34,186 nucleotides of DNA from an uncultured Ignavibacteriaceae bacterium (GTDB lineage: Bacteria > Bacteroidota > Ignavibacteria > Ch128b), in the NCBI GenBank assembly GCA_964571865.1, contig CAZNDS010000002.1, positions 1,973-36,158 of the forward strand. Reading direction: 5' to 3'. Below are positions 3,228 through 10,760 of the stretch, one piece after another (the stretch's first letter is position 1; each line of letters begins with the position of its first letter). Below the pieces are notes generated by a model. That model did not search any database. It was not told where the DNA came from and saw only the letters and a list, made by a program, of their open reading frames with translations. A program made the position numbers and the translations under genes.

Positions 3228-3740
3228 TCACTTTCTCGAATGAACAAATCCTCGATAAGGTGTTGCAGATTGGATTGATATAAAAGCTTTAGAATCGATT
3301 TTATCAATTATTTTGATAGCTTCTTCCTGTCGTCTTCGCGTAGTCAATATTACTAAAACCGCAACTCCCCCTCTTCCGCCTTCTGCAGGAAGGATTGTAA
3401 CTCCAAAATTATTTTTTCTTAATTCGTCGGCGATCTTGTCTGTAAAATAAAGTGAAATAGTATAGAGCTGAACGAATCCTACTCCGAACTTCTGTTCAAC
3501 ATAGATTCCGAGTACATTGCCGAGTGCAAATCCGGTCGAGTAGCCGAGTATGTTCCACAAATTATCAAGGTGCAGCATCACATGTCTGATTGCAAAGATC
3601 CAAATCGTAACTTCAATGAAGCCCAAAATCCCGGCTTGATATTTTCTTCCCTGCACAACCATCAAAGTTCGAACAGTGCCAAGCGTAACATCGGCAACTC
3701 GCATTGACATGATCATCAACGCACTTAAGAATATTTCCAA
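3228..3740 (-). CDS. UPF0316 / DUF2179-family membrane protein
   Basis: 170-aa ORF. The N-terminal half is membrane-embedded (RVADVTLGTVRTLMVVQGRK...) and the C-terminal half is a soluble domain (GVTILPAEGGRGG...AFISIQ). This architecture is typical of UPF0316 proteins. Confidence 0.65.
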   Translation of the reverse strand: MEIFLSALMIMSMRVADVTLGTVRTLMVVQGRKYQAGILGFIEVTIWIFAIRHVMLHLDNLWNILGYSTGFALGNVLGIYVEQKFGVGFVQLYTISLYFTDKIADELRKNNFGVTILPAEGGRGGVAVLVILTTRRRQEEAIKIIDKIDSKAFISIQSATPYRGFVHSRK

Positions 3741-4014
3741 AACTTCTCCTCAGTTTATTACAAAAGTAAGACATTTTTTTTTGATCGATGAAAGACCTTG
3801 TTTAATTTTAAATGCATAAGCTCTATATTTACACCGGAAACTGATTTTCAAATCAAAAACAATAAAAAATAATTATGATAATAATTCACAGACTTGATGA
3901 ATTCATTTATGAAACTTTTCCTAATTTAATTGGTCTGACAAAGTTGGAAGTTAATTTTAAGAATGAGTACGAGCAAGCAAAGAAAATATATCATAAAAAA
4001 TAAATTGAATTAAA

Positions 4015-5997
4015 ATGGACGGAAACTCCTTAAACAACTTGTCCCGATCCTTCGGGATACTTCAAGACCAATTGGAAAAACTGAAACAGATTTTTCCCGA
4101 AGCCATTACGGAAGGAAAAATTGATTGGGAGAAACTTCAAGCTGCACTCGGCAAGGAAAATATTGAGTTTAGAAACGAACGCTATGTTTTGAATTGGGCG
4201 GGCAAAACAGATGCATTTAAAATTTTGCAGCAGCCAACTACTGCAACTCTTAAACCCATTAAAGAAGAATCTGTAAACTTTGATACTACGGAAAACATTT
4301 TTATCGAGGGTGAAAACCTTGAAGTGCTGAAAGTGCTGCAAAAATCTTATTACGGAAAAGTAAAAGTTATTTGTATTGACCCGCCGTATAACACAGGAAA
4401 CGACAGCTTTATTTATCCCGACAGTTTTAAGGAAAGCAGAGAAGATTACAAAAAAAGAATTGGCGATGTGGATGAAGAAGGTTATTTGATGAAAGAAGGT
4501 ATGTTCCGCCGCAACAGTAAGGACAGCGGGCATTACCACAGCAACTGGTTAAGTATGATGTACCCGCGCCTTTTCCTTGCAAAAAATTTACTGCGTGATG
4601 ATGGAGTTATCTTTGTCCACATTGATGATAACGAAGTGCATAACCTCCGCTTAATTATGAATGAGATTTTTGGAGAGGAGAATTTTTTTGCCCAAGTTAT
4701 TGTAAGGTCAAACAGTAGAGGGCAAACTTATAAACAAATTGCAAAAACTCATGAATATATTCTTGTTTATACCAGAAATGTTGAGACTGATTTGAACGAA
4801 TTGGAAAAAGATGAAGAAAATTACGATCTGAATCTTAGTGATACTATTGGAAACTATAATATAAGGGAGTTAAGAAATAGAAATCCAAAGTTTGGCAAAC
4901 ATAATAGACCCAATCTTTTTTATCCAATTTATACTAATCCAAATTCCTCTGACAAAGATGGATTTTCACCAGTGAGTTTGGTAGAAACTGAAAATTATTA
5001 TGTGGAAATATTGCCACTTAATTCTGAGAAAAAAGAAAGTTGTTGGCGCTGGGGACAAAAGAAATGTAATTCAAACATTAATCCAAATACACTTGAAAGT
5101 AATTTAGTAGCTAAGAAGAAAAGCGATGGTTTATTTGGTATTTATGAAAAATACAGAAAGGCAACATACAAACCGAAATCAATTTGGGATGATAATAGTT
5201 TCTTAACTGAAGCCGGCACCGTAGAATTAGGAGAATTGGGAATTGAAAATATTTTTGACTTTCCTAAACCAGTTGCTCTTGAAAAACAAATATTAAATTT
5301 ATCGATACAAGATGATGACATTGTTCTTGATTTCTTCGCTGGTAGTGCAACAACCGCCCAAGCAGTTTTAGAACAAAACAAAGACGACGGCGGCAGCAGA
5401 AAATTTATTTTAGTGCAGCTTCCAGAAAAATGTGAAGAAGAAAGCGAAGCATACAAAGCCGGTTATAAAACAATTGCAGATATTGGTAAGGAGAGGATAC
5501 GGCGTGTAATAAAGAAATTGAACGAACAATGTAATGCTGAACGAATTGAAGCAACTAAAAAGGAAGGATTGTTTCAAACAGATTTTCAGAATGACAGGTT
5601 GGATTTGGGTTTCAAAGTTTTCAAACTCGCTCCATCTAACTTCAAAATCTGGAGAGGCAATGAAATCACGGAAGAAAATTTAGTCGAACAGCTTGATGCT
5701 TTCACAAACCCGGTTAAAGAAGGCAGCGATAAAGAAAACATGCTTTATGAGTTAATGCTTAAAGCCGGTCACTTACTAACAGATAAAGTGGAATACAAAA
5801 ACAAACTTTATTATGTTAAAAGTGGAGAGTTAATAATTGCTCTTGAAGAGATGAGTCAAATACTAATTGAAGAGACAATTTCTGCAAAACCGAAGAAAGT
5901 AATTACACTCGATTCTCTTTTCGCTTGTAACGACCAGCTAAAAACAAACACCGTATTGCAAATGCGCGATGCAGAGGTTGATTTTAGAACAATATGA
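4015..5997 (+). CDS. mod: Type III restriction-modification DNA methyltransferase (Mod), beta-class amino-methyltransferase
   Basis: 660-aa ORF. Catalytic motif IV DPPYNTG (aa 122-128) comes before the SAM-binding motif I LDFFAGSATTAQAV in the C-terminal third, separated by a long variable region (TRD). This IV-TRD-I order and the size fit Type III Mod. A Res-type helicase-nuclease lies downstream on the same strand. Confidence 0.9.
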   Translation: MDGNSLNNLSRSFGILQDQLEKLKQIFPEAITEGKIDWEKLQAALGKENIEFRNERYVLNWAGKTDAFKILQQPTTATLKPIKEESVNFDTTENIFIEGENLEVLKVLQKSYYGKVKVICIDPPYNTGNDSFIYPDSFKESREDYKKRIGDVDEEGYLMKEGMFRRNSKDSGHYHSNWLSMMYPRLFLAKNLLRDDGVIFVHIDDNEVHNLRLIMNEIFGEENFFAQVIVRSNSRGQTYKQIAKTHEYILVYTRNVETDLNELEKDEENYDLNLSDTIGNYNIRELRNRNPKFGKHNRPNLFYPIYTNPNSSDKDGFSPVSLVETENYYVEILPLNSEKKESCWRWGQKKCNSNINPNTLESNLVAKKKSDGLFGIYEKYRKATYKPKSIWDDNSFLTEAGTVELGELGIENIFDFPKPVALEKQILNLSIQDDDIVLDFFAGSATTAQAVLEQNKDDGGSRKFILVQLPEKCEEESEAYKAGYKTIADIGKERIRRVIKKLNEQCNAERIEATKKEGLFQTDFQNDRLDLGFKVFKLAPSNFKIWRGNEITEENLVEQLDAFTNPVKEGSDKENMLYELMLKAGHLLTDKVEYKNKLYYVKSGELIIALEEMSQILIEETISAKPKKVITLDSLFACNDQLKTNTVLQMRDAEVDFRTI

Positions 5998-6025
5998 GAA
6001 CTACAAATTATTTTTCGAATTGTAC

Positions 6026-6212
6026 CCTTATTACCTTAGTAATTACGGACGAGAAAGTAAGTATCAACCTTATTACCTTAGTAACTAACCTGGAACTGAA
6101 TGATAGAGAAAAGAAACCTTATTGCCTTAGTAACGGGAACAATAAGCAGAATAATTTACCTTATTACCTTAGTAACAGAAACTGTACGAAAAAAACTAAC
6201 CTTATTACCTTA
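6026..6212 (+). repeat. left array: five direct copies of a 20-bp repeat (consensus AACCTTATTACCTTAGTAAC)
   Basis: Copies at 6026-6042 (17-nt core), 6066-6085 (perfect), 6115-6134 (1 mismatch), 6157-6176 (first base differs) and 6198-6212 (truncated 15-mer AACCTTATTACCTTA, ending 5 nt before the ATG at 6218). Start-to-start spacing is 41-49 bp and the spacers are unrelated to each other. Confidence 0.9.
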
Positions 6213-6217
6213 TCACA

Positions 6218-6658
6218 ATGAAAATAGAGTATAACAATCTATATACCCACTTTATTTTAATAACAAAAAACAGACTCCCACTAATTTCTACGAATTATAG
6301 ACTAAGAATTGAAAAATTTATTACGGGCGTCATTAGGAATCATGATTCAAAATTATACGCAATTTATGCCAACCCGGAACACGCGCATTTACTTGTATCC
6401 CGTTCGCCTAAAATATCGGAAGAAACACTAATTACAAGAGTTGCTGATAGTTCACGAAAATTTATAAACGAAAACAAACTTTGCGCCGGGAAATTTGAAT
6501 GGCAAAATTCTGCTTCTGCTTTTTCTGTATCTAAAGCTGATGTTGATAAAGTTTGCAAGTATATTCTCAATCAACCAGAACACCATAAGAAAGTAAGTTT
6601 TCAGGATGAGTATGACAGCTTTATAAAATTTTATCAAAAAACTTTAAAGTGGGAATAA
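6218..6658 (+). CDS. single-domain HUH / Y1 tyrosine transposase (IS200/IS605 TnpA-like, RAYT-like)
   Basis: 146-aa ORF. YTHFILITKNR N-terminal strand; HUH motif H55-A-H57 (NPEHAHLLV); WQNSASAFSVS; catalytic-Tyr helix KY115ILNQPEHH, comparable to QYIENQ of IS608 TnpA. Size and motif order match the Y1_Tnp family. Confidence 0.8.
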   Translation: MKIEYNNLYTHFILITKNRLPLISTNYRLRIEKFITGVIRNHDSKLYAIYANPEHAHLLVSRSPKISEETLITRVADSSRKFINENKLCAGKFEWQNSASAFSVSKADVDKVCKYILNQPEHHKKVSFQDEYDSFIKFYQKTLKWE

Positions 6659-6750
6659 GGTAATAAGGTTACGATTTATGAGTTCAGTAGTTACTAAGGT
6701 AATAAGGTCGTATTATGTTAGTTCAGATGAGTTACTAAGGTAATAAGGTT
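6656..6750 (-). repeat. right array: three copies of the same 20-bp repeat in inverted orientation
   Basis: TAAGGTAATAAGGTT at 6656-6670 is a truncated 15-mer, the exact reverse complement of 6198-6212, and contains the ORF stop codon TAA 6656-6658. GTTACTAAGGTAATAAGGTc lies at 6690-6709 and a perfect GTTACTAAGGTAATAAGGTT at 6731-6750, which ends 7 nt before the res ATG. Confidence 0.9.
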
Positions 6751-6757
6751 AAGTAAG

Positions 6758-9403
6758 ATGAAACTCCATTTTGACAGCAACCAGGCATATCAACTCGAAG
6801 CTATCAAATCTATTACTGATATTTTTGAAGGGCAGCAATTAAACAGAGGTGAGTTTGAGTTTTCGCTTTCTCAACCCGGCTCAATCTTTACCGAAAACGG
6901 CTTCGGCAATCAAATTGATTTTGCCGACATAAAACAACTGACCGAGAACATTCAGAGAATTCAACAAAATAATGGACTGAAAGTATCTTCAGAGGATGAA
7001 ATCCAAAACAATGGATGGAATTTCTCGATTGAAATGGAAACCGGCACTGGTAAAACTTATGTATATCTCCGAACCATTTATGAATTGAGCAAACTTTACG
7101 GACTGAAAAAAATTGTGATTGTTGTTCCGTCAATCGCGATTCGTGAGGGCGTATTAAAAAATCTTGATATTACTGAAGAGCATTTTCAAAATCTTTACGA
7201 CAATATTCCCGTTACTTTCGATGTTTATGACAGCAAGAAAGTGTCTAACCTTCGCGGATTCGCGTCTTCAAACTCAGTGCAGATTTTAATTATCAATATT
7301 GATTCATTCGCGAAAGATGAAAATATAATTAACAAACCCAATGACAAACTCACCGGCAAAAAGCCAATTGAATTTATTCAAACGTGCAGACCGATTGTTA
7401 TTGTTGATGAACCACAGAATATGGAAACAGAAATCCGTAAGAGAGCAATTGAAAATCTTAATCCGCTTTGTACTCTCCGTTATTCTGCAACACATACAAA
7501 TCTTTACAACTTGGTTTATTCACTCAATCCGGTGAAAGCTTACGATTTGGGTTTGGTAAAGCAGATTGAAGTTGATTCAGTTGTAAGCGAAAATGATTTC
7601 AACACTCCTTTTCTTCAGTTAGAAAATATTACTCGAAGCGGTAATGCAATCAAAGCCAAGATAAAACTCGATACTGTTACCGAAACCGGAATTAAAAGAA
7701 GATCGGTAACTGCTAGCGCGAGAAAACTTGATCTGTATGAATTGTCAAATCAAAACGAAAAATATGATGGTTTAAAAATTTATGAAATTGATTTTGCCAA
7801 CGAACAGATTGAATTGACAAACGGAATCATTCTTAGAAAAGGAGAATCCGTTGGAGGAATGAATGACGATGTTACGCGTTTTATGATTAGTAAAACGGTT
7901 GAAGAACATTTAAAAAAGGAAAAGCATTATCGAGAAAAAGGAATAAAAGTTCTCTCTCTTTTCTTTATTGACAAGGTGAAGAACTATCGTGAATACGATA
8001 TTGACGGAAATTCCATAAAAGGGAAGTTCGCTCAGTGGTTTGAAGAAATATATCTTCAAGAAACTTCCAAGCCTGCGTACAAAGATTTGAATTCATATTC
8101 TGCTGATGAAATACATAATGGATATTTTTCTTGTGATCACAAAGGAAAAATAAAAGATACTGAAGGAGAATCGCAAGCAGATGATCAAACATATCAGCTT
8201 ATAATGAAGGATAAGGAAAAATTGCTCGATACAAATATTCCTCTTCGGTTTATATTTAGCCATTCTGCATTACGCGAGGGTTGGGATAATCCAAATGTAT
8301 TTCAAATCTGCACTTTGAACGAAACAAAATCGGAACTAAAAAAACGTCAGGAAATAGGAAGAGGATTAAGATTGGCAGTTAATCAGCAAGGACAAAGAAT
8401 ATTCGATCGCAACATAAACAAGCTAACTGTTGTTGCTAATGAACGATATGAAGATTTCGCAAAGGCATTACAAAAAGAAATTCAAGAAGATTGCGGCGTT
8501 GATTTTACCGGAAGAACTAAAAATAAAAATGACAAAAAGAAAGTCAACTACAGAAAAGGTTTTGAGGCGGATCCAAAATTTTTACAGATATGGGAAAAAA
8601 TCCGTTACCGCACAAAGTATAGAGTAGATTACGATACAGCTAAACTCATAACTCTTGCCTCAAATGCCGTTTGTAAAATGGGGGAAACAAAGAAGCCATC
8701 TATTAGATCAGTAACAAAAAAAGTTTTGTTGACAGATGAGGGAGTTGAGGGACTATTGATTAGGGATAGTAAAAAGGATGAATACTATTACAAATTTGAG
8801 ATTCCGGATATTCTGTCCTATATACAAAGTAAAACTGAATTAACAAGACACACAATATTAGAAATTCTTAAAAACTCAAAACGTTTGAAAGAATCTTTAT
8901 TGAATCCACAAATGTTTATGGATAATTCGGTTGCTTCAATACGCGAAGTGCTTCATGAACTAATGATAGATGGAATTAAGTATCAAAAAATCGGAAATAA
9001 ATTTTACGAAATGACATTATTCGATGACGAAGGTTTTGAGATTTATCTTGATGATTTCACACATCTTGTTAAAGACAACTCAAAAACAATTTATGATAAT
9101 TTCATTCCCCTTGACAGCAGTATAGAAAACCAATTTGCAAAAGATTGCGAAAGCAGTGAGCAAATTGAATTTTACTTCAAACTTCCCAATTGGTTTGAGA
9201 TTGACACACCGATTGGTAAATATCGTCCCGATTGGGCATTAGTTTTTAAAAGTGAAAAGAAAATTTATTTCGTTGCAGAAACAAAATCTTTCGGCCAGGA
9301 ATTGAGGCAGAGCGAAAAATTAAAAATTGAATGTGGGACAGCACATTTCAAGAATTTTGATGATGTAGTTTATAAAAGAGTTTCGTCAGTTTCAGAATTG
9401 TAA
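6758..9403 (+). CDS. res: Type III restriction enzyme Res subunit (SF2 helicase plus PD-(D/E)xK nuclease)
   Basis: 881-aa ORF. Walker A METGTGKTYVYL; motif II VIVDEPQNM; motif VI-like HSALREGWDNPNVFQI; C-terminal nuclease-like YRPDWALVF...YFVAETK. Same strand as mod and downstream of it. Confidence 0.9.
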   Translation: MKLHFDSNQAYQLEAIKSITDIFEGQQLNRGEFEFSLSQPGSIFTENGFGNQIDFADIKQLTENIQRIQQNNGLKVSSEDEIQNNGWNFSIEMETGTGKTYVYLRTIYELSKLYGLKKIVIVVPSIAIREGVLKNLDITEEHFQNLYDNIPVTFDVYDSKKVSNLRGFASSNSVQILIINIDSFAKDENIINKPNDKLTGKKPIEFIQTCRPIVIVDEPQNMETEIRKRAIENLNPLCTLRYSATHTNLYNLVYSLNPVKAYDLGLVKQIEVDSVVSENDFNTPFLQLENITRSGNAIKAKIKLDTVTETGIKRRSVTASARKLDLYELSNQNEKYDGLKIYEIDFANEQIELTNGIILRKGESVGGMNDDVTRFMISKTVEEHLKKEKHYREKGIKVLSLFFIDKVKNYREYDIDGNSIKGKFAQWFEEIYLQETSKPAYKDLNSYSADEIHNGYFSCDHKGKIKDTEGESQADDQTYQLIMKDKEKLLDTNIPLRFIFSHSALREGWDNPNVFQICTLNETKSELKKRQEIGRGLRLAVNQQGQRIFDRNINKLTVVANERYEDFAKALQKEIQEDCGVDFTGRTKNKNDKKKVNYRKGFEADPKFLQIWEKIRYRTKYRVDYDTAKLITLASNAVCKMGETKKPSIRSVTKKVLLTDEGVEGLLIRDSKKDEYYYKFEIPDILSYIQSKTELTRHTILEILKNSKRLKESLLNPQMFMDNSVASIREVLHELMIDGIKYQKIGNKFYEMTLFDDEGFEIYLDDFTHLVKDNSKTIYDNFIPLDSSIENQFAKDCESSEQIEFYFKLPNWFEIDTPIGKYRPDWALVFKSEKKIYFVAETKSFGQELRQSEKLKIECGTAHFKNFDDVVYKRVSSVSEL

Positions 9404-9572: not shown

Positions 9573-10760
9573 ATGTATGAACGAAAACAGCTCTCGGAAC
9601 TTAAAAAAAGAATTAGTGAAGAATTGCCGCTCATCCAGGTGATAACAGGATCACGGCAGGTTGGTAAAACCACCTTAGCATCTCAATTAGTTGAAGCAAT
9701 AAATTTGCCGCATATTTTCGCATCGGCTGATGCCGTCCCTTTCTCATCATCAGGCTGGATTGAACAGCAGTGGGAAGCTGCCCGGATTAAATTGGCAAGC
9801 TCAACGTCCAATACATTCTTTTTGGTATTAGATGAAATTCAAAAAATCCAAAATTGGAGCGAGTCAGTAAAAAAACTATGGGATAAAGACCGGCGCAATA
9901 AAGTTAATCTAAAAATTATTTTGCTCGGCTCTTCAACATTAATGCTAAGCAAGGGATTAACAGAATCGTTGACAGGTCGGTTTGAGTTGATTCAACTGCC
10001 TCATTGGAGCTTTGCTGAAATGCATCAGGCATTTGGTTTTTCACACGACCAGTATGTTTTCTTTGGCGGTTACCCTGGCGCTGCGCGTTTTATTTCAGAC
10101 GAAAAAAGGTGGCGAGATTACATATTGAATTCAATAATTGAACCAACAATTTCAAAAGATATCTTGCAGCTTACAACAATTCAAAAACCCGCACTGCTTA
10201 AAAATCTGTTTGAGATTGCGTGCATTTATAACGGAGAAATTTTATCCTACAATAAAATGTTGGGGCAGCTTGTAGATGCCGGAAATACTACTACACTTTC
10301 GCATTATCAAAATTTACTCAACTCAGCATGGATGATTTCGGGCTTGCAAAAATTTTCAGGCTCAATTGTTTCTGCAAAATCATCAACGCCTAAGTGGTTA
10401 AATTATAATACGGCATTTACTTCTGTTTATACAAATAAAGAATTTGCATCAAGTTTAACACAGCACGAATATTGGGGACGCAGAGTTGAGCAAAGTATTG
10501 GTGCTTATTTATTAAACCTCTCAAGAATGCACAATTTCGATCTGTTTTATTGGAGAGAAGGAAACTACGAAGTGGATTTTGTTCTGAGAAAAAACAAAAA
10601 GGTGGTAACAGTTGAGGTAAAATCTGGCAAAGTGAAATTTCATGCGGGGCTTGAGCAATTCAAGAAAAAATACAAACCGGCAAAGAGCATATTAATAAGC
10701 GAAGATGCTTTAACCTGGAAAGAATTTCTAACGCTGAATTTGATATCGCTGTTTGAGTAA
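9573..10760 (+). CDS. AAA+ ATPase of the AAA_14/DUF4143 (COG1373-like) family with a C-terminal PD-(D/E)xK-like nuclease motif
   Basis: 395-aa ORF. Walker A GSRQVGKTTL; Walker B FFLVLDEIQK; C-terminal YWREGNYEVDFVLRKNKKVVTVEVKSGK (D...E-x-K). Confidence 0.8.
   Translation: MYERKQLSELKKRISEELPLIQVITGSRQVGKTTLASQLVEAINLPHIFASADAVPFSSSGWIEQQWEAARIKLASSTSNTFFLVLDEIQKIQNWSESVKKLWDKDRRNKVNLKIILLGSSTLMLSKGLTESLTGRFELIQLPHWSFAEMHQAFGFSHDQYVFFGGYPGAARFISDEKRWRDYILNSIIEPTISKDILQLTTIQKPALLKNLFEIACIYNGEILSYNKMLGQLVDAGNTTTLSHYQNLLNSAWMISGLQKFSGSIVSAKSSTPKWLNYNTAFTSVYTNKEFASSLTQHEYWGRRVEQSIGAYLLNLSRMHNFDLFYWREGNYEVDFVLRKNKKVVTVEVKSGKVKFHAGLEQFKKKYKPAKSILISEDALTWKEFLTLNLISLFE

Follow-up and report, generated by a model that had tools for sequence, protein, structure and literature searches.

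The mod-res locus and its insert

The DNA analysed here, 34,186 nucleotides (nt) from an uncultured Ignavibacteriaceae bacterium (GenBank assembly GCA_964571865.1, contig CAZNDS010000002.1, positions 1,973 to 36,158 of the forward strand; hereafter the window), encodes an operon for restriction and modification (R-M) of Type III whose mod and res genes are separated by a compact module, i.e., a gene for an HUH/Y1 transposase (Y1) enclosed by two opposed arrays of a 20-nt repeat (20-mer). The host operon has the organization of a Type III system, with Mod (a beta-class N6/N4 methyltransferase) followed on the same strand by Res (a superfamily 2 helicase with a C-terminal endonuclease). Res scored 322 bits (E = 6.6e-96) with the type III endonuclease model PRK15483, below its equivalog cut-off of 564, and is 61-83% identical over its full length to 80 relatives from metagenomes. 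The gap between the two genes comprises 760 bp (5998-6757), with the mod stop codon as the left border of the insert. The features are listed below (L numbers denote loci compared with the window).

4015..5997, + strand: Type III mod gene, 660 aa, intact (PF01555 N6_N4_Mtase, E = 1.7e-31; full-length alignment to the Mod proteins of relatives)
5998..6023, + strand: junction from mod stop to first repeat, 26 nt, homologous to the L173 junction
6024..6043, + strand: left array copy 1, ACCCTTATTACCTTAGTAAT, degenerate (2 mismatches in the 19-mer scan)
6066..6085, + strand: left array copy 2, AACCTTATTACCTTAGTAAC, exact consensus (repeat scan)
6115..6134, + strand: left array copy 3, AACCTTATTGCCTTAGTAAC, 1 mismatch; the spacer 3' of it is homologous to an L173 spacer
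6157..6176, + strand: left array copy 4, TACCTTATTACCTTAGTAAC, 19-mer core exact, first base T, not A
6198..6212, + strand: left array copy 5, inner truncated 15-mer, ending 5 nt before the Y1 ATG (6218)
6218..6658, + strand: HUH/Y1 gene, 146 aa, TnpA_Y1 class 1 with subclass 1.2 signature (PF01797)
6656..6670, - strand: right array inner copy, truncated 15-mer, overlapping the TAA stop codon (6656-6658)
6690..6709, - strand: right array copy 2, reverse complement of the 20-mer, last base C
6731..6750, - strand: right array copy 3, outermost, ending 7 nt before the res ATG
6758..9403, + strand: Type III res gene, 881 aa, intact (ResIII, DEAD and RE_endonuc domains; PRK15483)

The left copies are spaced 42, 49, 42 and 41 bp apart, and the innermost left and right copies form a perfect 17-nt inverted repeat (6197-6213 / 6655-6671). 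Seven matches to the repeat at up to three mismatches were observed in the 34-kb window, as compared to 0.01 expected by chance. Folding of a single 20-mer unit yielded about -1 kcal/mol, no better than shuffled sequences (z-scores +0.6 to -1.0); the unit is not an imperfect palindrome and has no tetranucleotide tag of the GTAG/CGTC type. No paper was found in a full-text literature search for the repeat sequence, and a scan of positions 5800-6900 against Rfam returned no RNA family at E <= 1.

This anatomy bears out a sequence-only reading of the window made earlier, which had placed the Mod stop at 5997 and the Res start at 6758, with the module filling the entire 760-bp gap. It had described five direct copies to the left and three inverted copies to the right of a 146-aa open reading frame (ORF), as repeat scans confirmed, and had recognized the inner copies as truncated and inverted, one lying 5 nt before the ATG and the other holding the stop codon. 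The module was also said to point in the same direction as mod and res, and the Y1 ORF indeed lies on the + strand like both genes. Site prediction found no terminator-like or sigma-70-like sites on the + strand within the module, in agreement with the claim that it lacks a hairpin plus T-tract terminator. The sequence claims all hold, with position shifts of at most 1-2 nt. Of the proposed TTAC/GTAA mini-stem the letters are present in the 20-mer, without meaningful structure in view of the folding values given above.

The Y1 protein is related to IS200/IS605 transposases

The 146-aa protein matches the Y1_Tnp family (PF01797), as the sequence-only reading had expected, over profile positions 3-121 of 121 (E = 1.4e-18, 67.6 bits, cut-off 23). 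It has an HUH motif (E54-H55-A56-H57), a WQ motif (W95-Q96) and a tyrosine helix (Y115-ILN-Q119-PE-H122-H123). In an alignment of 34 homologues, mostly 145-148 aa long, H55, H57, W95, Y115, Q119, H122 and H123 are invariant, as is the WQ motif. The HUH residues (H55-A-H57) and Tyr helix (Y115) already recognized in the letters are thereby corroborated, and in the printed alignment with ISDra2 TnpA they are in register with PDHVH and KYIESQ. The 34-sequence profile matches the TnpA proteins of ISDra2 (2.8e-10) and IS608 (2.9e-8); this profile was needed, as a phmmer search of PDB sequences with the single protein gave no match. When an AlphaFold2 (AF2) model (pLDDT 83.6) was compared with the PDB by Foldseek, the top 29 matches were IS200/IS605 TnpA structures (IS608, ISDra2, Sulfolobus), with TM-scores of 0.54-0.61 (query-normalised) and 0.56-0.68 (target-normalised) at probability 1.0, and RAYT 4ER8 ranked 30.

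The NCBIfam IS200 equivalog NF033573 was marginally missed (53.2 bits, cut-off 55). Comparison with a RAYT model, likewise suggested by the sequence-only reading, gave 17 bits against a cut-off of 80 (NF047646 REP_Tyr_transpos). No HTH-family Pfam match was found in the protein, and PADLOC-DB 2.0 returned no family at E <= 1e-5. The protein appears to fit TnpA_Y1 subclass 1.2, an assignment made by motif signature. Its HUH motif reads EHAH, the consensus of its clade EH[VA]H, and DHVH is found in some members (L091, P0012) and in the distant protein of L181 described below.

Homologues numbered 4,727, and many Bacteroidota sequences among them are 72-84% identical to the window protein. The gene is under strong purifying selection: ratios of nonsynonymous to synonymous substitution (dN/dS) were 0.05-0.1 with synonymous sites saturated (pS 0.6-0.85), and about 0.06 between the window gene and its closest homologue located between mod and res.

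Dispersal of the repeat and gene-less elements

At least 120 stretches, belonging to about 60 GTDB assemblies, contain the 18-nt core of the 20-mer according to a scan of one genome per GTDB species, whose counts are those of the matches listed and hence lower bounds. Gene-less '++--' elements in extragenic DNA make up the majority of these places. Taxa represented among these matches are Chitinophagales, Cytophagales, Flavobacteriales, Bacteroidales, Sphingobacteriales and Ignavibacteria/Melioribacter, and 97 of the 120 loci lack any Y1 remnant. The commonest repeat cluster (n = 42) is arranged '++--' and has sharp ends, A/ACCTT...AAGGT/T. Of 35 short elements, none is located within a long open frame, and the flanks of the 35 dispersed elements have in common only an A at -1 and a T at +1, both part of the 20-mer. 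Upon folding, short '++--' elements form long hairpins solely through their inverted arms.

The dispersed elements form a size series, from 122-292 bp without an ORF, via 230-393 bp with fragments of the Y1 3' or 5' end (L060, L099, L069, L118), to 555-565 bp with a complete gene, which is how an autonomous element and derivatives of it with internal deletions would look. In other genomes, the canonical unit is '+ + gene - -' and about 560 bp long; it has full-length outer and truncated inner copies, as compared to which the window arrays are enlarged from 2 + 2 to 5 + 3. Among seven homologous modules that were inspected, six have the inner left copy at the same 5-nt distance from the ATG, the exception being L208 with 12 nt; overlap between the inner right copy and the stop codon is likewise found in homologues. 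In the Segetibacter metagenome-assembled genome (MAG) CAXUMK01, at least three degenerate Y1 copies (L060, L099, L107) have the same flanks as its gene-less elements. The non-coding 20-mer is near-identical across the same comparisons in which synonymous sites are saturated, and is therefore under selection; in its simplest reading it would be the recognition site of the Y1 protein.

An intergenic region of an Aequorivita MAG (L064, 2558-3620) contains five reverse and eight forward copies of the 20-mer and no Y1 gene. Its forward array has alternating spacers with a two-unit period of ~80 bp, and GC-rich simple repeats lie between the arrays, all of which points to growth by tandem duplication. 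Because such long gene-less arrays occur elsewhere, the 5 + 3 arrays of the window plausibly arose by tandem duplication as well. One exact 18-mer copy lies on a contig binned as a 'Desulfurococcales archaeon' MAG (L050); as the other listed matches are from Bacteroidota/Ignavibacteriota, this contig is probably mis-binned. The 18-mer was absent from IMG/VR viral contigs, and there is thus no evidence for a phage vehicle.

The module between mod and res and at other sites

Whole modules with the same kind of ends are found in dissimilar surroundings. Between murC and murB, in the conserved cell-division (dcw) cluster, a 77%-identical Y1 gene with the same end repeats is co-oriented with its neighbours and disrupts neither of them (L215, 6001-6447; also L216 and L217). 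In L002, the module stands beside HTH and DAGK genes. In the space between mod and res (the mod-res slot), it occurs, apart from the window, in L130 and L173 (Y1 84% identical), L004-007 (82%), L208 (80%), L131, L175 and L209-214 (78%), and L091 from a Melioribacter MAG (77%). In all, it occupies the slot in about eight distinct loci. In a neighbour-joining tree of Y1, slot copies fall into three groups and are interleaved with the non-slot copy L002/P0003; support is weak because the protein is short.

The junctions show how individual slot copies relate to each other. Before the first repeat, the window and L173 align with the letters ATGA..ACAAAT..TTTCG.GAA.TGT in common, and the two descend from one insertion, because both this left junction and a spacer are common to them. 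The junctions of L131, L091 and L004 differ from this type. In L004, 17 nt from the start of a DUF6978 cargo gene directly precede the element; L133 and L134 have an intact version of this gene. DUF6978 was also considered as a diverged HUH protein and dismissed at an HHalign probability of 0.2%.

Several slot loci show further rearrangement. In L173 (2193-2320) and L208 (2947-3040), the mod stop and the Y1 module have between them an additional, separate element without a gene ('++--' or '+--'), followed in L173 by a remnant of the res leader and start codon, which suggests repeated insertion into one slot. L183 (8463-10000) retains the right-hand array alone, as a decayed remnant 5' of an intact res. 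No mod was found within 10 kb of it, and an IS110-family transposase and AcrB genes are located upstream of res instead; this orphan res was made by rearrangement at the element.

L181 (610-1165) carries a second Y1 gene directly after mod, which is 30% identical to that of the window and subclass-1.2-like (DHVH, YIRNQVEHH). It is flanked by an outer GC hairpin, CCCCCGAC-n-GTCGGGGG, and by inner GC hairpins, GGGCTTTAGCCC / GGGCTAAAGCCC, the right one of which overlaps the stop codon. This example shows flanking structures around other subclass-1.2-like genes as well. A DUF1828/1829 gene follows the L181 gene, as in L004.

The mod-res junction is a cargo slot

We surveyed the loci of the 80 metagenome relatives of Res (L128-L207), 59 of which span both the end of mod and the start of res. 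The two genes are adjacent (0-8 nt apart) in 10 of these 59 loci, two have an ORF-less gap of 84 and 355 nt, and 47 carry tightly packed cargo genes over 0.4-6.2 kb, all on the operon strand save one short ORF. A gene between mod and res is thus the norm in this Type III lineage. The sequence-only reading had taken mod and res of Type III systems to be neighbours as a rule, which does not hold for this lineage. Related loci with directly adjacent genes, which it had named as telling against recruitment of Y1 by the operon, are the 10 given above, and most relatives are without Y1. About five of the 80 Res relatives carry the Y1 module.

The cargo comprises 90 ORFs in 40 protein clusters. PADLOC matches include IetA/IetS (E = 1e-145, 1e-298), TIR-APAZ with short pAgo (5e-138, 3e-193), and HEC-01, the latter as an HEC-01/NsnB-like ATPase encoded with DUF4276. 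Other cargo consists of a Ppl-like ATPase with a Schlafen/AlbA_2 protein, GmrSD_N, OLD-TOPRIM, PDDEXK_3, Bro-N, KilA-N, DUF1828/1829 and DUF6978 proteins, a type IIG enzyme, SIR2, long pAgo and many unknowns, such as a 677-aa protein in L148 and a 301-aa protein in L004.

At several loci, pieces of the mod 3' end and of the res 5' start occur in duplicate between cargo blocks. L091 has a direct res-5'/mod-3' fusion (3470-3631, - strand); L181 has three mod-3' ends and two res-5' starts (561-609, 1972-2020, 2473-2521, 2342-2455, 3878-3991); and L004 has an 88-nt duplicate of the mod 3' end (4828-4915 and 6298-6385). These scars look like collapsed tandem Type III loci or cassette exchange, which may be how cargo accumulates. 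The last 60 nt of mod have 78% nucleotide identity, as compared to 64-65% further upstream, and the first 60 nt of res are unexceptional. Conserved mod 3' and res 5' ends acting together as recombination handles were considered and regarded as a weak proposal, given the unexceptional res 5' end.

Two further ORFs in the window deserve mention. A 75-aa ORF (5994-6221), whose ATG overlaps the mod stop (ATGA) and which reads across the left repeat array, is probably spurious; its first ~30 nt, common to L173, may be what is left of the start of a gene once located downstream. An AAA_14 and DUF4143 ATPase gene (395 aa, 9573-10760), 170 nt 3' of res and on the same strand, may be another defence-island neighbour.

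Interpretation and alternative explanations

In our view the insert is probably a compact Y1 mobile module that occupies the slot as a passenger and is not a working part of restriction. In substance, this is the first of two readings offered from the letters, namely an IS200/REPtron-like element that spared both genes, as the repeat is dispersed and the module occurs elsewhere. Its family labels need correction. Y1/IS200-like is right, a canonical REPtron is not, given the lack of a hairpin unit and the 17 bits with the RAYT model, and neither is a canonical IS200, given inverted ends and 53.2 of the 55 bits of the equivalog.

We propose that a Y1 dimer would recognize the 20-mers, most likely on single-stranded DNA and with the left and right ends paired with each other. 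Because a single 20-mer unit does not fold, end recognition would have to differ from that of IS608 and ISDra2, and left-right pairing is the most economical solution. The HUH-bound metal and Tyr115 would then cut and rejoin DNA, as in the TnpA proteins of IS608 and ISDra2, and the module may still be mobile today. The arrays would grow, probably through tandem duplication of repeat-plus-spacer units. Having landed in, or been recombined into, the tolerant mod-res spacer, the module would be inherited with the locus as a co-oriented passenger, probably read through from mod and thus co-transcribed with mod and res.

Several observations weigh against a mobile passenger. The Y1 protein is deeply conserved, as are domesticated RAYTs, and the gene itself may no longer move. 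Slot copies persist over dS > 1 and are always co-oriented, as a host function would likewise predict, and in L181 a second, distant, subclass-1.2-like Y1 occupies the same slot. The pairing of Y1 with the 20-mer as its cognate site is presumed from sequence. A scan of the 34-kb window at up to three mismatches found no 20-mer copies elsewhere, and exact copies are low in number in the assemblies seen (3-13 each). In CAXUMK01, the conserved unit reaches ~70 nt to the left and ~40 nt to the right past the inverted 20-mers (L011, L012, L036, L054, L060, L099, L107, L109, L112); this means either that the element truly ends beyond the repeats, as IS200/IS605 elements do, or that it is part of a larger mosaic repeat.

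Some of these points suit a domesticated gene of the RAYT type better, in which Y1 would be an immobile and usually single-copy host gene that mobilizes or maintains only the short '++--' elements, and its position in the slot would be fixed and vertically inherited. Strong purifying selection and deep conservation of protein and repeat are in line with this, as are the low copy number published for subclass 1.2 (PMC6006769), the absence of the gene from most repeat loci and the JGI annotation of homologues as 'REP element-mobilizing transposase RayT'. However, the full gene-plus-ends unit recurs with the same sharp boundaries in the mod-res slot, between murC and murB and in the HTH/DAGK neighbourhood, one MAG has at least three degenerate Y1 copies inside the flanks of gene-less elements, and the deletion series is graded. 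The NCBIfam RAYT model was also far from reached (17 vs 80 bits), and the repeat lacks the hairpin of a REP. Past mobility of the whole unit is favoured by the deletion series and the non-homologous contexts, and domestication by deep conservation and low copy number; we regard domestication as an unlikely explanation.

The second of the two earlier readings had Y1 and its iterated sites recruited as a third component of the R-M system, which would tune or uncouple Res relative to Mod expression or process single-stranded DNA in defence. A recruited gene would be expected to look much like the slot copies, with Y1 co-oriented in every one seen (window, L130/L173, L131/L175/L209-214, L091, L004-007, L208), intact over dS > 1 and in a module without a terminator, and with a second, distant Y1 in the same slot of L181. 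Yet an insertion bias towards one strand, together with hitch-hiking in a locus that is often exchanged, would account for persistence and co-orientation as well. The module is present in only about 5 of the 80 Res relatives, and the 59 spanning loci mostly hold other cargo (47) or none (10). Scattered 20-mers at unrelated extragenic sites, named beforehand as telling against recruitment, were found in many genomes, and members of this protein clade, as well as the repeat, were found at many sites unrelated to R-M, with equally strong purifying selection on gene copies outside the slot. Y1 has no PADLOC match, the neighbour-joining tree interleaves slot with non-slot copies, and the L004 element replaced the start of a DUF6978 cargo gene, as an insertion would. 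With no positive support, recruitment strikes us as highly improbable. We consider it very unlikely, too, that Y1 is active at the slot itself, where its cutting and joining on the 20-mers (hairpins in L181) could aid capture or exchange of cassettes or set Res versus Mod expression; an HUH enzyme would then be a functional accessory of a restriction operon.

The least credible explanation is an inert relic, i.e., an old insertion that is tolerated and no longer expressed or active. The irregular arrays (5 + 3) with degenerate outer copies, the lack of a promoter-like site in the module and the decayed remnant in L183 would fit such a relic, which is difficult to reconcile with an intact ORF that has all invariant catalytic residues, a dN/dS of about 0.06 against the closest slot homologue and perfectly conserved inner repeats. 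Two other proposals were rejected. The inverted arrays are not an invertible switch for res, as all slot copies point the same way and the search for a promoter was negative. Nor do the opposed arrays represent head-to-head Type III recognition sites, as the same 20-mer lies beside Mods with differing specificity regions (54-58% identity) and also occurs at non-R-M sites.

For the mobile passenger that we prefer, a small transposon that sits harmlessly between two genes is an ordinary event, and the novelty is modest. New here is a Y1 of subclass 1.2 whose inverted ends are iterated and form no hairpins singly, and which has dispersed derivatives; this is better supported than an active role of Y1 at the slot. 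It supplies a candidate recognition sequence, AACCTTATTACCTTAGTAAC, and a gene-less derivative family for a Y1 subclass that was described without REPs or insertion sequence (IS) features. The non-folding iterated 20-mer ends hint at a mode of end recognition unlike the hairpin-plus-guide mode of IS608 and RAYTs. Moreover, the mod-res slot of this Type III lineage, which holds IetAS, TIR-APAZ/pAgo, HEC-01, GmrSD-like, OLD-like and many unknown genes, broadens 'guilt-by-embedding' to include Type III systems and yields new candidates for defence.

Comparison with known systems

The closest described group is TnpA_Y1 subclass 1.2 (Quentin, Siguier, Chandler & Fichant 2018, BMC Genomics 19:475, PMC6006769), which is related to IS200 and known from Cyanobacteria and Bacteroidetes. 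Its members have a low genomic copy number and are listed as 'REP: no', without REPs or IS features. The window protein resembles them in length (~148 aa), in the WQ motif, in the Y-x3-Q-x2-HH signature and in having IS200/IS605 TnpA as its nearest relatives (PMC6006769). The window clade differs in its conserved inverted 20-mer ends and dispersed gene-less derivatives, and in an HUH motif of EH[VA]H as compared to the published DH[IV]H (PMC6006769).

IS200/IS605 elements such as IS608 and ISDra2 provide the best sequence, profile and fold matches and have the same catalytic set of HUH, Tyr and Gln; they have in common with the module a very small size and TnpA as the sole encoded protein. However, their ends are subterminal imperfect hairpins in the same orientation without terminal inverted repeats, whereas those of the window are inverted, iterated and non-folding 20-mers, and the IS200 equivalog stands at 53.2 vs 55 bits. 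IS200/IS605 elements insert 3' of a specific tetra- or pentanucleotide such as TTAC; the dispersed elements of the present family show at their flanks only the A and the T that are part of the 20-mer.

In the REPtrons of the RAYT-REPIN systems (Nunvar 2010; Bertels & Rainey 2011, PMC3116915; TnpA_REP 4ER8), a Y1 gene is likewise flanked by inverted short repeats, and the repeat is also scattered in extragenic DNA, in inverted pairs that can fold into long hairpins. Further likenesses are that both persist for long and are under strong purifying selection. In contrast to REPs, the repeat unit of the window is not a palindrome and has no GTAG/CGTC tag, and the protein belongs to class 1 (IS200-like) and not to class 2 (17 vs 80 bits with the RAYT model). 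Whole units of the window type turn up in unrelated places and decay through internal deletions, a behaviour reminiscent of IS and miniature inverted-repeat transposable elements (MITEs).

TIRYTs (Di Nocera et al. 2013, PMC3733652) are similar in that a Y1 gene is bounded by terminal inverted repeats and not by hairpins. They are mostly of class 2 (subclass 2.1), with proteins of ~240 aa, a C-terminal HTH and GGGG[AT][CG]A[CG] repeats (PMC3733652), whereas the window protein is a class 1 protein of 146 aa without an HTH-family Pfam match, and its repeat is unrelated and AT-rich.

As for the location, embedded defence genes are known from PrrC in EcoprrI and DarTG2 in a Type I system (PMC12255303), and a 'guilt-by-embedding' survey (Payne et al. 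2024, bioRxiv 10.1101/2024.01.29.577857) covered Hma, BREX, DISARM and Type I systems, with Type III outside its coverage. The mod-res slot resembles these systems in that co-oriented foreign genes lie between modification and restriction genes. It differs in that the host operon of the window is of Type III and the embedded item is a transposon-like module and not a defence gene.

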